A stretch of 64,000 nt of DNA from Oscillatoria sp. PCC 10802 (GTDB lineage Bacteria; Cyanobacteriota; Cyanobacteriia; Cyanobacteriales; Oscillatoriaceae), in NCBI RefSeq assembly GCF_000332335.1, contig NZ_KB235948.1, positions 2,740,513 through 2,804,512 of the forward strand, given 5' to 3'. The notes below the pieces were generated by a model. That model was not told the origin of the DNA and did not search any database. It worked only from the letters and a program-made list of their open reading frames with translations. A program made the translations under genes and the position numbers. Of this stretch, positions 33,934 to 39,319 are shown in pieces; position 1 is the stretch's first letter; each line of letters begins with the position of its first letter.

Positions 33934-35379
33934 ATGATCGCAATCGCAACAAATCTAAACCGGCAGCAACAAAGCATTGACACCCAAGTCGCTCGCAACC
34001 TAGCGGTCACGACGAATACCGTCCCGCAAATGACGGGGATTACACCCCGGTGGCTGCTGCACTTCCTGCCTTGGGTGCAAGTGCAATCGGGAACGTACCG
34101 CGTCAACCGCACCAAAGTCGTTCTCAAACAAAGTCCAAAAGTTCGGGTCAGTAACAGCAACGGCTACTCGAATGTCGCTCCAGAAGACCTGCGGACAATC
34201 CCCATGCTGTCAGATATCGCTATTTCTGACGCAGCGGCGCTCGCCAAGCGCTTCCAGAGCGTGTCTTTTGGGATGGGAGAAACTATAGTTACGGAAGGGC
34301 AAAAAGACGACAAATTCTATATTGTCGCGCAAGGGAAACTAGAAGTGTTAGTGCGGGGCGAACAAGGCCAACCCTTGCGCCTTGCCGTTCTGGGTGCGGG
34401 AGACTACTTCGGCGAAGTCGATCTCTATAAAGATATGCCCAGCGACGCGACTGTTCGCAGCCTCACCCCCTGCCGGTTGCTGGTGCTTTCTAAAGGCTGC
34501 TTCGACCAAGTGGTGAGTCACTCTCCCACCGTGCTGGAAAACTTGCGGCAGGCGGAGGAAAATCGCATGCGGTTAAAGTCCCTCCTCAACCTGTACGGGG
34601 AAGAAAAAGTTGCGCTCGCGGCTGGCTACGAGGGCGAAACTGAGTTACCGGCTTCTTTTGTGGACTACGAAAGCGAACCGCAAGAGTACGAACTGAGTAT
34701 CGTCCAAACGATTTTGCGCGCTCACACCCGCGTTACCGACATTTACAATGAGCCGATCGACCAGTTGCGCGAACAGCTCCGCCTGACAGTCGAAGGCATG
34801 AAAGAGCAGCAAGAGTGGGAAATTATCAACAACCCTGCTTTTGGCTTGCTCAACGCTGCCGCGCCCTCAATGCGCGTTCAGCCTCGCTACGGTGCGCCGA
34901 CTCCCGACGATCTCGATGAAATGCTGGCTCGCGTGTGGAAAAAACCGGCTTTCTTCCTGGCTCACCCGCGAGCGATTGCGGCTTTCGGACGCGAATGCAC
35001 GCGCCGGGGCGTTCCGCCAGTCACCATCAATCTTTTCGGCTCTCCTTTTATAACATGGCGCGGCGTGCCAATTGTGCCCTGCGACAAATTGGAAGTGAAA
35101 AACCGCACCGGCAGCCCCTACGGTCCTGGCAAGACGAATATCCTGCTCGTGCGTGCCGGTGAAAAAGAACAAGGCGTTGTCGGCTTGCATAAAGTGGGCA
35201 TTCCCGGCGAACAAATGCCCAGCCTTTCCGTGCGGTTCATGGGCATCAACGAGGTGGCAGTCGCGTCTTATTTAATGACGCTGTACTTCTCCTGCGCTGT
35301 CTTAACCGATGATGCTCTAGCCGTGCTGGAAAACGTGGAGGTGGGATACTACCATGACTATCAATATCCCAGCGCATAA
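33934..35379 (+). CDS. Family 2B encapsulin shell protein (HK97 fold with an inserted cNMP-binding domain)
   Basis: N-terminal [20 protein letters not shown] helix, which I recall as characteristic of family-2 encapsulins. CAP/cNMP-binding domain ([14 protein letters not shown]). Immediately followed by a cysteine desulfurase with a disordered N-terminus. Confidence 0.7.
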
Positions 35380-37273
35380 CGGTAAAAGCGGACATCACCC
35401 GCCTCAAGACGTGCCATTACCTCCCACCGGCGACAGTGGGATCTTTGACCCGCTCTCTGTAGAATCGCTCGCGAATCAGCTTTATAGCGCTTTGCCAAAT
35501 GGGAGCGGCGTCGCAGCCCCAGCCGGCACCCAGCCGGCAGTGGAAACTATCGGGACTGTTGCGCCGTCTGAAATCAATAGTTCTGGCATGAGTGGGGTGG
35601 CATTAGTGGGGAACTCCGCACCGGCACCAGCCCTCAGCGAGGACGCATTAACCGCAATGGCCAAACAGTTGCGAGCGCAGATGCTTCCCGCTAACCTGGA
35701 AACTAACGTGTTTCAGGCATTCGCACAGCTGGAACCCGCCGCACCTTCCGGCGAAACGGCTGCTGCTCTGCCCACAACTTCCGCTTCCAGCGATGCCTTG
35801 AATGTGGAAACTTTGAAAGCGGTGGCACAGCAGCTGTACGCCCAGATTCCCCAGATTTACCCCAGCGGAATTCCGGGCAATTCGATTCCCGCGCCTCCAA
35901 GGCCAACTTCTATTTTACCGCTCAGCGAGCCCGATTTGCAAAGGGCTTTCGCGGATGCGGGAGCGCAAGCCAGCCAGAAGCCGGTGCGGGAAACATCCCA
36001 GCCGTCGTTCTATTTCCTGTCTCCCCCAGCAGTGGAAAACCTAGGGTTACAGTCGGGGGCAATTTTTGATGTCAGCGCCATCCGCAAAGACTTTCCGATT
36101 TTGCACCAGAAAGTCAACGGCAAACCGCTGATTTGGCTGGATAACGCCGCCACAACTCAAAAGCCGCAAAGCGTTATCGATGCTCTGTCGCTGTTCTACC
36201 AGCGAGACAACTCCAACATTCACCGAGCAGCCCACACTCTGGCGGCGCGTGCGACGGATGCCTATGAAGGAGCGCGGGAGAAGGTGCAGCGGTTTCTGGG
36301 TGCGAGTTCGTCGTCGGAAATTATCTTCGCGCGGGGAACCACCGAAGCGATTAATCTGGTGGCGCAAACCTGGGGTCGCAAGTACATTCAGCCCGGAGAT
36401 GAAATTGTTCTCTCGACGCTGGAACACCACGCCAATATTGTTCCGTGGCAAATGCTGGCGCAAGAAACGGGAGCAATTTTAAAGGTTATTCCTGTTAGTG
36501 AGCGCGGGAAAATTCTGCAAGAGGAATACGCCCGACTCTTGGGACCGCGCACTCGCATCGTTGGGATCACGCAGGTTTCTAACGCTCTCGGAACCATCGT
36601 TCCAGTGCGGGAGATGACGCAAATCGCCCACCGGCACGGGGCAGTCGTCCTGGTTGACGGGGCGCAGGCTGTCTCTCACATGCCGGTGAATGTTCAAGAT
36701 ATCGGCTGCGATTTTTACACCTTTTCTGGTCACAAACTCTTTGCGCCAACAGGAATTGGTGTCCTGTACGCCAAACGGGAAATCCTGGAGGATATGCCCC
36801 CGTGGCAGGGTGGCGGAAACATGATTCGCCATGTGACGTTCGAGAGAACGATTTACAGCGATCCCCCGGCAAAATTTGAAGCGGGAACGCCTAATATTGC
36901 GGATGCGGTTGGACTGGGTGCGGCGATTGACTATATCACCCGCCTGGGGATGAGCAATATCGAACGGTACGAACACCAGCTCACCGAGTACGCAATGGGA
37001 CGCCTGGCGCAGATTCCGGGGTTGCATCTGATTGGTACGGCACCGCACAAAGTCAGCGTGCTGTCGTTTATTCTGGATGACATCCCTGTGGAACAAGTTG
37101 GGCAGCGCCTCGCCCGAGAAGGGATTGCGGTGCGTGCCGGTCATCACTGCGCTCAACCGACGATGCAGCGGTATAATCTGACGGGTACGGTTCGGCCTTC
37201 ACTGGCTTTTTACAACACTTGTCAGGAAATCGACACGCTCGTAGAAGTCCTGCGGACTATTCGCTTCCGCTAA
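35354..37273 (+). CDS. Cysteine desulfurase (SufS-like class V aminotransferase) with an Ala/Pro/Ser/Gln-rich disordered N-terminal domain of about 230 aa. Presumed encapsulin cargo.
   Basis: [12 protein letters not shown]-Lys motif FSGHK, active-site Cys region RAGHHCAQP. The start overlaps the encapsulin stop by 26 nt. Confidence 0.85.
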
Positions 37274-37408
37274 CTGGAATTTTTCGCACAAGGGGACATG
37301 ATAAATGTCCCCTCACCCCCCCAAACCCCGCACTTTGGGGTGAGGGGGGAGCTGCTGCCTCGGAGCTTTTTTAGCAGAAATAAAGAGAACATCAAGAAAC
37401 CAGGTTTC

Positions 37409-37499
37409 TCTCGTTCCCAGCCTCAGGCTGGGAACGCAATCTGGAGGCTCTGCCTCCTTTCAACGGAAAAGCAGGTTAAAAGCCTAACAGCTGAGTAAG
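37409..37499. mobile_element. Repeat family R2, copy b
   Basis: TCTCGTTCCCAGCCTCAGGCTGGGAACGCAATCTGGAGGCTCTGCCTCCTTTCAACGGAAAAGCAGGTTAAAAGCC. Confidence 0.55.
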
Positions 37500-37537
37500 T
37501 AAATTAATCGGACATATTTACTGGAGGTAATCGGAAA

Positions 37538-38383: not shown

Positions 38384-38401
38384 GAATTCCAGAGGGTTCA
38401 A

Positions 38402-38830
38402 ATGACTGAGTTTAACTGGGTGACCGGCTTGCTGGGCGGTTTGCTCATCGGCACGAGTGCGACTGTCCTGCTGGCATTCAACGGTCGGATCGCTGGGATT
38501 AGTGGCACGCTCAACAGCGCCCTCAATTTAGCGTCAGGCGAAGTCTGGCGCTGGCTTTTTCTGGGCGGACTGCTGGCGGGGGGCGCACTCTATGAATATG
38601 TCCTCGCACCGGCACCGACACCGGCATCTGAGTTCGCTCCCTTGGCAATGATTGCCGGCGGCTTTCTGGTGGGCTTCGGCACGCGCATGGGCAACGGCTG
38701 CACCAGCGGACATGGGGTGTGTGGGCTGGGCAGACTTTCGCTTCGCTCGCTGGTGGCTGTTCTGACTTTTTTGGGCACTGCGATTGTCACGGTTTTCGTG
38801 ACGCGCCACGTCCTTTTCTTGTCAACCTGA
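38402..38830 (+). CDS. YeeE/YedE-family (DUF395, sulfur-transport) membrane protein, half-size paralog 1
   Basis: Four TM segments and the conserved GxxxGxGxxxxxGC-TSG loop (GNGCTSGHG). Confidence 0.65.
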   Translation: MTEFNWVTGLLGGLLIGTSATVLLAFNGRIAGISGTLNSALNLASGEVWRWLFLGGLLAGGALYEYVLAPAPTPASEFAPLAMIAGGFLVGFGTRMGNGCTSGHGVCGLGRLSLRSLVAVLTFLGTAIVTVFVTRHVLFLST

Positions 38831-38872
38831 GAAAGAGCCAGACGCGATAAAATAAATCGCGCTTTTACAAGA

Positions 38873-39319
38873 TTGAAGGTTGAAAATATGAAACAAAATC
38901 TGGTAGCTTTGATTGCAGGTGTGCTGTTTGGTCTGGGTTTGGGTTTTTCCCAAATGATTGACCGGCAGCGGGTTCTCGGGTTCTTGGATGTCACCGGTGC
39001 TTGGGACCCGACGCTGCTTTTTGTGCTGGGCGGGGCTGTTGGCGTGACGGTGATTGCGTTCCGTTTCGTGTTGCGCCTCCCGCACCCATTCTATGCGGAA
39101 AAGTTTGAATTGCCTACTCGGAAAACCATCGACAGAAAACTGATTTTGGGGGCGGCTATTTTCGGTGCCGGTTGGGGAATCGCTGGATACTGCCCAGGAC
39201 CTGGCCTCACGGCGCTGGTGCTGGGCATCTGGAATCCCGTTTTGTTTGTAATCGCGATGATTGCCGGTTCGCTGACTTATAAATGGTTCTCGACTCGGTT
39301 TGAGGGGCGAATGGGATAA
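38873..39319 (+). CDS. YeeE/YedE-family (DUF395) membrane protein, half-size paralog 2
   Basis: Same fold signature (GWGIAGYCPGPG). Confidence 0.65.
   Translation: MKVENMKQNLVALIAGVLFGLGLGFSQMIDRQRVLGFLDVTGAWDPTLLFVLGGAVGVTVIAFRFVLRLPHPFYAEKFELPTRKTIDRKLILGAAIFGAGWGIAGYCPGPGLTALVLGIWNPVLFVIAMIAGSLTYKWFSTRFEGRMG

Follow-up and report, generated by a model that had tools for sequence, protein, structure and literature searches.

A chromosomal family 2B encapsulin operon with a cysteine desulfurase cargo and a YedE1E2-type transporter pair in an Oscillatoria-like cyanobacterium: a probable sulfur store

A 64,000-nucleotide (nt) stretch of the genome of Oscillatoria sp. PCC 10802 (NZ_KB235948.1; hereinafter the window, in whose numbering all positions are given) contains five open reading frames (ORFs), all on the plus strand, that encode the shell protein of a family 2B encapsulin (33934-35379, 481 amino acids (aa)), a cysteine desulfurase that is the apparent cargo of this shell (35354-37273, 639 aa), a serine O-acetyltransferase (cysE; 37538-38383, GTG start, 281 aa) and two halves of a YeeE/YedE-type transporter, half A (38402-38830, 142 aa) and half B (as a mechanically delimited ORF, 38873-39319, with a TTG start at 38873). 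We consider it quite probable that these genes make up a desulfurase encapsulin operon of family 2B, located on the chromosome of an Oscillatoria-like cyanobacterium, and that it functions as a sulfur store. A preliminary description, made from the letters of the sequence, had delimited the same five ORFs at these coordinates and had interpreted them as a 2B encapsulin, a desulfurase cargo with a disordered N-terminus and a set of sulfur-related accessories. Each of the five identifications proved right, and the overall interpretation is backed by matches to curated models, by the solved structures of homologs and by conserved synteny; the matches to the hidden Markov models of the shell, the cyclic nucleotide monophosphate (cNMP)-type domain, the desulfurase, the serine acetyltransferase and YeeE, which that description had left to be searched, are all far above chance.

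The cluster does not differ perceptibly in GC content from the remaining window and is flanked by chromosomal housekeeping genes, namely, pheT, cobK, a lipoyl ligase gene and a nucleotidyl-transferase/phosphomutase fusion. The closest genomes are metagenome-assembled genomes of Oscillatoria, with shell identities of 94% and 91%, and a lookup of contigs encoding the exact proteins returned only short contigs with the same genes. For comparison, we used 80 genomic loci (designated by L numbers) from cyanobacteria and Planctomycetota, which together encode 119 shell sequences.

The shell protein (33934..35379, +) passes the NCBI equivalog model of family 2B encapsulins (NF041163, encap_f2b) with 596 bits, at a cutoff of 400, and aligns over its full length (residues ~10 to 471) with the 2B shells solved by cryo-electron microscopy (cryo-EM), 9BJE, 9BIX and 9BHU, with E values from 1e-125 to 1e-114 and an identity of ~55-60%, as estimated by eye from the alignments. 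Three parts can be delineated in this protein: an N-arm (residues 1-61), a cNMP-fold insertion (residues ~84-215) and an HK97-type, SrpI-like domain (residues 225-478), the latter two being recognized by the Pfam models PF00027 (cNMP_binding; residues 110-195, E 1e-20) and PF19307 (SrpI-like; residues 215-471, E 8e-116), respectively. The N-arm includes a short N-helix (TPRWLL..LPWV..GTYRVNR), and its residues 12-59 are nearly identical to the counterparts in the Streptomyces 2B shells and 49% identical to SrpI, the family 2A shell of Synechococcus elongatus. Over its C-terminal 250 residues, the shell protein also resembles three 2A shells, SrpI, that of Acinetobacter baumannii and mycobacterial MMP-I (PDB 6X8M, 8T6R and 8WOL); for SrpI, the E value is 5e-112, and the HK97 domains are 62% identical. 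In the alignment with SrpI, residues 4-56 and 60-305 of the latter lie on either side of residues 62-224 of the shell protein, so that the cNMP-fold domain and its linker appear as a clean insertion. Homology shows the predicted 481-aa protein to be an HK97-fold shell subunit whose N-arm is separated from the remainder of the fold by an inserted cNMP-fold domain; by analogy with the 55-60% identical solved shells, self-assembly into a closed icosahedral particle that encloses cargo would be expected. The preliminary description had recognized the family 2 N-helix and the internal cNMP-type domain, both of which are borne out by these models and structural alignments, and had named lack of HK97 similarity as an observation that would overturn it; such similarity is present in the homology to three solved shells.

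The inserted domain had been described as cNMP-binding, a designation of which the fold stands but the binding most likely does not. The cNMP fold is recognized by PF00027, and the isolated domain matches eukaryotic PKA and PKG domains with E values of 1e-23 to 1e-26 (the Streptomyces shells were not within the E 1e-15 limit of that search), but the phosphate-binding arginine is missing, and the only tested 2B shell, Sg Enc, does not bind cAMP (PMC11550324). In the equivalent of the phosphate-binding cassette (34408..34461, +; residues 159-176), the sequence PSDATV is aligned opposite PR[ST]A[ST][VI] of the PKG and PKA domains, the canonical form of the cassette being FGE[LIV]AL...PR[ST]A[ST]V; the shell protein retains the Gly-Glu pair, but the phosphate-contacting arginine is replaced by Ser170, and the subsequent serine or threonine by Asp171. 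Because Ser-Asp takes the place of Arg-Ser/Thr, the inserted domain most likely binds neither cAMP nor cGMP, and it may sense another metabolite; judging from the residues of the cassette, only the fold is shared with cyclic-nucleotide sensors, and the domain should not be filed among them.

The P-S-[D/E] signature is nearly invariant among the 119 shells, and a textbook cassette, FGEIAL...PR[TK]A, is retained only in three shells of Planctomycetia (L014, 840-2228; L016, 10001-11389; L018, 7139-8542), which may be true cyclic-nucleotide-responsive encapsulins. A desulfurase cargo is encoded downstream of the shell in L014 and L016, and the contig of L018 stops before the position where the cargo gene would be located. 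In our alignment, the Streptomyces 2B shells contain tryptophan at the position of the cassette arginine, as has been reported for 'essentially all' family 2B shells (PMC11550324); given the presence of Ser-Asp in the desulfurase-associated clade, as opposed to tryptophan elsewhere, this clade appears to possess a conserved pocket of its own. Another distinction concerns the acidic Ca2+-binding segment (MBD) with which the inserted domain begins and which has been reported to be conserved in family 2B, the coordinating residues not being stated in the text of PMC11550324. The equivalent segment of the Oscillatoria shell (residues 59-92) contains no GDGxx[D/E]F motif and is basic, with a net charge of +4 versus -1 to -3 in three Streptomyces shells.

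The cargo gene starts within the shell gene: its ATG is located at 35354 and the TAA of the shell at 35377-35379, so that the two ORFs share the 26 nt noticed already in the preliminary description, with the reading frame of the cargo shifted by +1 from that of the shell. A GGAGG sequence (35337-35341) lies inside the shell ORF, 12 nt before the cargo ATG. The overlap is kept in other cyanobacterial loci, where the cargo proteins begin with MT[IM]N. The simplest reading of the overlap together with the internal Shine-Dalgarno sequence is translational coupling of the cargo to the shell.

The cargo protein passes the model for encapsulin-cargo cysteine desulfurases (NF041166) with 813 bits, at a cutoff of 800, as well as the SufS subfamily model TIGR01979 (567 bits; cutoff 475) and PF00266 (E 1e-148). 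Its catalytic domain, of the SufS type within class V aminotransferases (36059..37273, +; residues 236-639), contains the pyridoxal phosphate-binding Lys461 in the SGHK motif and the catalytic Cys599 in GHHCA. The best match in the PDB is 8KG1 (E 4e-174), and many SufS structures also match, without the motif-bearing extension of 235 aa that precedes the catalytic domain here. This extension, the predicted cargo-loading domain (35354..36058, +; residues 1-235), consists of 15% alanine, 13% proline, 11% serine and 7% glutamine and includes three amphipathic motifs of the LxxxAxQLY type (residues 35-48, 99-112 and 154-166) that are internal repeats of each other, with BLOSUM62 scores of 32-34, and a fourth motif, QPSFYFLSP (residues 216-224), directly before the catalytic domain. 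Among the cyanobacterial 2B cargos, these motif blocks are conserved, and the lengths of the linkers between them vary widely. The motifs correspond to LARLANEFFS and AASPYYFLDG of the SrpI cargo (PMC8049743), and the presence of three amphipathic motifs is consistent with the three discontiguous contacts between cargo and shell in the A. baumannii structure (PMC10836720). Homology shows that the disordered N-terminus carries the predicted motifs by which this type of cargo is loaded into family 2 shells. The earlier assignment of a SufS-like desulfurase preceded by ~230 disordered residues rich in alanine, proline, serine and glutamine is upheld by the NF041166 match, the amino acid composition and the conserved loading motifs.

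The third gene (37538..38383, +) encodes a serine O-acetyltransferase of the CysE/EpsC type, in agreement with the original assignment: the 281-aa protein scores above the cutoffs of TIGR01172 (251 bits versus 211) and NF041874 (233 bits versus 150) and contains the hexapeptide repeats of a left-handed beta-helix. It ends with ...EDFLDGAGI, and an EFL[DHN]GAGI tail is invariant in all nine cysE products whose alignment reaches the C-terminus, out of the 10 cyanobacterial-type loci that contain this gene downstream of the cargo. In enterobacterial and plant serine acetyltransferases, a C-terminal tail ending in ...G-I docks into cysteine synthase. The cysE products of the cyanobacterial 2B operons also possess a C-terminal extension of ~75 aa (in the window, 38150-38383, residues ~205-281), in which a segment (PD.EA.VIR.LFERIK.LE.Q) that appears coiled-coil-like by eye precedes the EFL[DHN]GAGI tail; EpsC encoded by pANL of S. 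elongatus does not contain the coiled-coil-like segment. A role in oligomerization or in docking is among the possibilities for this extension.

The cargo and cysE genes are separated by a spacer of 264 nt (37274..37537, +), versus ~560-700 nt in L013 and L001, that appears to be highly structured, with a minimum free energy of -100.7 kcal/mol for the predicted RNA (z = -4.95 against 200 shuffles). It contains hairpins at 37291-37313, 37317-37349, 37413-37435 and 37443-37457; a T6 run (37367-37372) comes after the second hairpin, which is GC-rich, and the Shine-Dalgarno sequence of cysE, GGAGG (37523-37527), precedes the GTG start. We infer that this spacer may be a partial terminator or an element of RNA processing or stability that determines how much shell and cargo is made relative to the accessory proteins.

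The last two genes encode YeeE/YedE proteins of half length, as originally proposed and now ascertained with PF04143 and PF20398. Half A (38402..38830, +; 142 aa), of the YedE1/PmpA type, is equivalent to the C-terminal half of YeeE/TsuA, being matched by positions 187-309 of the 310 in the PF04143 profile, and carries Cys100 in a GNGCTSGH motif. In a weak alignment with residues 188-317 of YeeE/TsuA (6LEO), this cysteine is located opposite GGCNIGH. Half B (38888..39319, +; 143 aa), of the YedE2/PmpB type (DUF6691), is equivalent to the N-terminal half, with 150 bits for PF20398 and a match to positions 20-103 of PF04143, and carries Cys102 in GYCPGPG, a cysteine that is conserved in the homologs from Sinorhizobium meliloti and Acaryochloris. 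Its start is most likely the ATG at 38888 rather than the TTG at 38873 because the homologous sequences begin with MKQ or MNR at the equivalent methionine. The two halves have no BLASTP similarity to each other, and several hydrophobic segments are apparent in the hydropathy profile of each; relatives in the published YedE1E2/PmpAB systems have four transmembrane helices (PMC10812762, PMC11582611). The similarity to full-length YeeE/TsuA is marginal (E 0.34; 25.7 bits for NF052577, with a cutoff of 400).

The preliminary description had considered a pair of half-size YeeE genes unusual. This proved to be wrong: the arrangement is the widespread PmpAB/YedE1E2 one, with half-length homologs in 333 plasmid records. 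Half A is 70% identical to the corresponding half from Acaryochloris and 48% to that from S. meliloti, and half B is 69% identical to the DUF6691 protein of Acaryochloris and 45% to S. meliloti YedE2. In Acaryochloris, the pair is annotated in the same order, beside genes for an MBL hydrolase, a rhodanese and a SulP transporter; in S. meliloti, two adjacent half-size genes are located beside a helix-turn-helix (HTH) regulator and TauE. The Cupriavidus YedE1E2 proteins import zero-valent sulfur (S0) only when both halves are present, and the single cysteine of each half is essential (PMC10812762); for PmpAB, which shows the same relationship of halves to the full-length protein, a heterodimer has been proposed (PMC11582611). 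By homology, then, halves A and B are shown to belong to a predicted transporter of the YedE1E2/PmpAB type, and by analogy with the characterized pairs, they would form a heterodimer that imports S0. Attachment of such a pair to an encapsulin operon seems to be unreported: the YedE-type family is not listed in the table of 2A neighborhoods of PMC8049743 and is not mentioned in PMC10836720.

Across the compared loci, the association of shell and cargo is nearly universal, with a cargo desulfurase sequence downstream of the shell in 76 of the 80; the contigs of the other four end too soon after the shell. Loci of the cyanobacterial type contain one shell gene and most of those from Planctomycetota two paralogs, the latter pattern being that of the two-component systems listed in PMC12407261. 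Downstream, the yedE pair is found in L001, L006, L008, L013 and L015, that is, in five of the 11 cyanobacterial loci with enough downstream sequence, and these five span shell identities from 94% down to 71%; the identity of the pair to that in the window (75-95%) is equal to or above that of the shell. Given this patchy presence, the yedE pair appears to be an optional accessory. In L004 and L007, a DUF1269 gene is located downstream.

By extrapolation from the characterized relatives and from the gene order, the following mechanism can be proposed. About 60 shell subunits would assemble into a particle with T=1 symmetry and a size of ~25-30 nm, which would display the cNMP-fold domains externally and hold the desulfurase tethered inside through the three amphipathic motifs and the FYFL motif. 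The desulfurase would convert L-cysteine to alanine, and the abstracted sulfane sulfur would accumulate in the lumen as protected S0, as in family 2A desulfurase encapsulins, which store crystalline S0 (PMC10836720). The compartment would then be a store or buffer of sulfur, probably expressed according to sulfur supply; SrpI is induced by sulfate starvation (PMC8049743). The overlap and internal Shine-Dalgarno sequence would couple translation of the cargo to that of the shell, and the structured spacer would lower read-through into, and expression of, the accessory genes. Among the products of the latter, the serine O-acetyltransferase, with its ...GI tail of the cysteine synthase-docking type, would feed cysteine synthesis via O-acetylserine, and the YedE1/YedE2 heterodimer, with one essential cysteine per half, would import S0, polysulfide or thiosulfate. 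The imported reduced sulfur would enter cysteine by the O-acetylserine route and then the compartment, so that uptake would be linked to conversion and storage.

Several observations weigh against this scenario. In the one single-component 2B shell that has been studied well, the two-fold pores are large and open (PMC11550324); if these are shared by the Oscillatoria shell, they would admit cellular thiols, and protected storage of S0 as in family 2A might fail, in which case delivery or buffering of sulfur would be the more likely role. There is no rhodanese and no cysK in the window, which leaves the remobilization of the stored sulfur unexplained, and the yedE pair is absent from six of the 11 informative cyanobacterial loci and from all loci of Planctomycetota. 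It is also conceivable that the stable hairpins and the T-run preceding cysE amount to a full terminator, in which case the genes beyond it would be transcribed separately. The scenario presupposes regulation in response to sulfur, and no recognizable regulator site or Rfam element was found. Finally, our literature search identified no characterized family 2B desulfurase system, and the scenario draws on sequence and analogy.

Some of these observations are accommodated by two alternatives that retain the gene identifications. The same parts might serve not as a store but as a device, induced by starvation, for removing sulfur from cysteine and passing the persulfide through open pores to acceptors outside, as originally proposed for the SrpI type, or for detoxifying cysteine or sulfide that is in excess. 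Both SrpI and the desulfurase it packages are indeed induced by sulfate starvation, with their role left open (PMC8049743), the two-fold pores in the 2B shell from Streptomyces griseus are large and would not exclude thiols (PMC11550324), and no rhodanese for controlled remobilization is encoded in the window. Nevertheless, we find this alternative unlikely: the only direct biochemistry on desulfurase encapsulins revealed S0 crystals formed without an acceptor (PMC10836720; summarized in PMC12746231), and an importer of S0 or polysulfide in the same operon fits acquisition and storage better than catabolism (PMC10812762). It is also conceivable, though rather improbable in our estimate, that the functional unit consists of the shell and the cargo only, with cysE and the yedE pair being ordinary sulfur-assimilation neighbors that are expressed on their own. 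The 264-nt spacer with its strong hairpins and T6 run, the lack of the yedE pair in most of the related loci and its presence in unrelated sulfur clusters without encapsulins are all compatible with such an arrangement. However, serine acetyltransferase is a recognized accessory of desulfurase encapsulins that is present in 56% of the 2A neighborhoods (table of PMC8049743; see also PMC10836720), the five genes are on the same strand with short gaps and a terminator-like hairpin only after the last of them, and the yedE pair directly follows the cargo or cysE in L006 and L008, whose shells are 71-72% identical to that of the window.

Two further alternatives dispute the identity of the genes themselves, and we give hardly any credence to either. 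The 481-aa protein could be taken for a transcription factor of the Crp/Fnr type or for a leftover prophage capsid protein, with an ordinary SufS encoded next to it. Depositors of PDB entries have named its relatives 'Crp/Fnr family transcriptional regulator', there is a weak match to the NCBIfam CRP model (43 bits, cutoff 266), and the fold is of viral origin. By contrast, no DNA-binding model of Pfam or NCBIfam was matched, the similarity to CRP is confined to the cNMP-fold part, the remainder is the HK97-type domain shared with SrpI, and the PDB 'regulators' themselves are cryo-EM shells (PMC11550324, PMC12407261). Nor do the flanking ORFs that were scanned include a terminase, portal or protease of a prophage, the vault protein homolog described below and housekeeping genes being found instead, and an ordinary SufS would lack the 235-aa motif-bearing extension. 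With close homologs solved as shells, this alternative is effectively refuted. Similarly, the half-size YeeE/YedE genes could be a full-length yeeE broken by mutation, i.e. a pseudogene, given that each has only about half as many residues as TsuA/YeeE and that, between the two, both halves of the Pfam model are accounted for. Such a break is contradicted by gene order and conservation: the half resembling the C-terminal part comes first, which is the reverse of what a break would produce, each half has its own start and conserved cysteine, the halves are dissimilar to each other in BLASTP, and homologous pairs with 45-70% identity exist in the same order in Acaryochloris and as adjacent halves in Sinorhizobium, both halves being required for function (PMC10812762).

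The end of the operon, facing a convergent gene for a 1244-aa protein, is likely marked by a terminator-like hairpin directly after the last gene (39335..39374, +), with an 11-bp stem that includes six GC pairs, followed by the T-rich sequence ACTTTTCTTT; terminator-like matches were overall below expectation, and only this one is well placed. At the other end, we noticed a candidate -10 element, TATAAA (33818..33823, +), as the possible operon promoter, with low confidence. A similar TATAA[A/T]-like hexamer is equally spaced from the shell ATG in L001, L003, L011 and L013, with weaker versions in L004, L007 and L015; a generic sigma-70 promoter scan yielded four matches versus 3.6 expected, that is, the chance level.

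About 80 nt before the shell ATG, there is an inverted repeat, ACTTAGCT-N18-AGCTAAGT (33850..33883, +), a candidate stem-loop of the 5'-untranslated region or operator. Arms of the form CTTAGC/GCTAAG, with loops of 13-30 nt, are found upstream of the shell in L001, L002, L003, L005, L011 and L013, and in L015 the arms are ACTGAGC/GCTCAGT, a double change that preserves pairing; the repeat is absent from L004, L007, L008, L009, L010 and L012. RNAalifold predicts a weak 7-bp stem (-2.8 kcal/mol) with no cleanly aligned compensatory pair, so we tentatively list this repeat as a candidate element and nothing further. An Rfam scan of positions 28000-44000 with E values up to 1 produced no match and detected no known riboswitch or leader. 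In L006 and L008, two divergent cyanobacterial loci that both contain the yedE pair, a regulator of the Rrf2 family is encoded directly upstream of the shell (8790-9227 and 8580-9080, respectively) and is a candidate regulator of the operon in these lineages; a search of the window for an Rrf2 regulator, cysK, a rhodanese and a second copy of the shell found none.

The gene upstream of the shell, at a distance of 600 nt, encodes an 888-aa homolog of the eukaryotic major vault protein (30668-33334, +), with matches to the Pfam Vault repeats, Vault_2/3/4 and MVP_shoulder (E 1e-17 to 1e-69), so that genes for two unrelated shell-forming proteins adjoin each other. Homologs of vault proteins have been described previously in Oscillatoriales (bioRxiv 10.1101/872010). 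A functional link between the vault homolog and the encapsulin is unlikely: the genes are adjacent only in L001, L002 and L013, the three closest genomes, and not in L015 or the others, and the length of the spacer varies. Further upstream is a gene for a 167-aa pentapeptide-repeat protein (29584-30087, +), with an N-terminus that by eye resembles a signal peptide, which is syntenic in L001 and L013. Downstream of the operon, the convergent 1244-aa ORF (39363-43097, -) contains a P-loop, STAND-like NTPase region and a helicase C-terminal domain; it is kept beside the operon in L001, and its end is found in L013. The next ORF, of 1008 aa (43278-46304, -), has no match in Pfam or PADLOC, and PADLOC returned nothing meaningful for the two large ORFs and the vault homolog. 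These two ORFs are possibly a pair involved in defense or nucleic acid processing.

Among the known systems, the 2A encapsulin SrpI with its desulfurase CyD (S. elongatus PCC 7942, plasmid pANL; 6X8M) is the cyanobacterial counterpart: the HK97 domain and the catalytic domain of the cargo are each 62% identical to those described here, the disordered N-terminal loading domain contains motifs of the helix and FYF types, and a serine acetyltransferase is part of the cluster. Unlike the window operon, SrpI contains no cNMP-fold insertion, and its cluster is plasmid-borne with the order cysK-epsC-srpI-cyd-rhodanese; in the window, the order is shell-cargo-cysE-yedE1-yedE2, on the chromosome, with overlapping shell and cargo and neither cysK nor rhodanese. 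The 2A encapsulin of A. baumannii (PMC10836720, 8T6R; E 2e-110 for the HK97 domain), the source of the proposed S0-storage mechanism, is similar in the enzyme class of the cargo, in the loading principle, with three discontiguous contacts, and in having an acetyltransferase accessory, but differs in its closed two-fold pores, its rhodanese accessory and the lack of a cNMP-fold domain; the paper describes no YedE-type transporter.

The Streptomyces 2B shells, Sg Enc/EshA (9BHU) and Enc1/Enc2 of Streptomyces lydicus (9BJE, 9BIX), share with the Oscillatoria protein the N-arm, the cNMP-fold insertion, the linker and the HK97 domain, and the canonical arginine is missing in both groups. By contrast, Sg Enc encloses a terpene cyclase, the S. 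lydicus shells, with no cargo assigned, belong to an operon of the xylulose kinase type, tryptophan occupies the arginine position instead of Ser-Asp, and the segment equivalent to the basic stretch here contains the acidic GDGxx[D/E]F. The YedE1E2/PmpAB pairs of Cupriavidus pinatubonensis, S. meliloti and Serratia are likewise adjacent genes for proteins of ~140 aa, with the half resembling the C-terminal part first and one conserved cysteine in each. Unlike the pair appended to the encapsulin operon, however, they are located beside ArsR-type regulators, persulfide dioxygenase, rhodanese or TauE; very few cyanobacterial examples of YedE1E2 are listed in PMC10812762. YeeE/TsuA (6LEO; PMC7449682) is likewise a member of PF04143, and its C-terminal half contains the GGCNIGH motif to which GxGC of half A is aligned, but it consists of one chain of ~330 aa that has nine helices and three cysteines, and it requires TsuB/YeeD; among the ORFs of the window that were examined, we noted none of the YeeD/TusA type.

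This class of operons is already catalogued: in 2021, Andreas and Giessen recorded 199 operons in which a family 2B shell is combined with a desulfurase cargo (PMC8346489), and such cargo accounts for ~9% of family 2B (PMC11550324). Our literature search found no experimental study of any of them. Within the literature searched, the class is experimentally uncharacterized, and the Oscillatoria locus is a good example of it, not a discovery. What is new here is modest, namely, the recurring YedE1E2 accessory, the Ser-Asp pocket together with its few relatives that retain the canonical arginine, and the missing acidic motif of the metal-binding segment. These observations add to the known catalogue and do not overturn the current understanding.

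As speculation, to which we assign little probability, the pieces could be joined as follows. The cNMP-fold domain, displayed on the outside and with its clade-specific Gly-Glu...Pro-Ser-Asp pocket, would sense a non-nucleotide metabolite indicative of sulfur status, such as O-acetylserine, N-acetylserine or cysteine, and gate the pores; YedE1E2 would import S0 or polysulfide (e.g. S0 from sulfide-driven anoxygenic photosynthesis in mats), the acetyltransferase would drive it into cysteine, and the encapsulated desulfurase would re-deposit it as protected S0, with the shells of L014, L016 and L018 representing an ancestral, cNMP-responsive state. If this is true, these three shells would offer a natural comparison for what the insertion domains of 2B shells bind.

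The cyanobacterial operon, with its single shell gene, is a compact test case for the desulfurase encapsulins of family 2B. It poses the questions of whether S0 can be stored in a 2B shell that possibly has open pores, which ligand the insertion domain binds, and whether import by YedE1E2 is coupled to storage. For the second of these, the conserved Ser-Asp pocket, along with the relatives that carry the canonical arginine, provides a direct handle.

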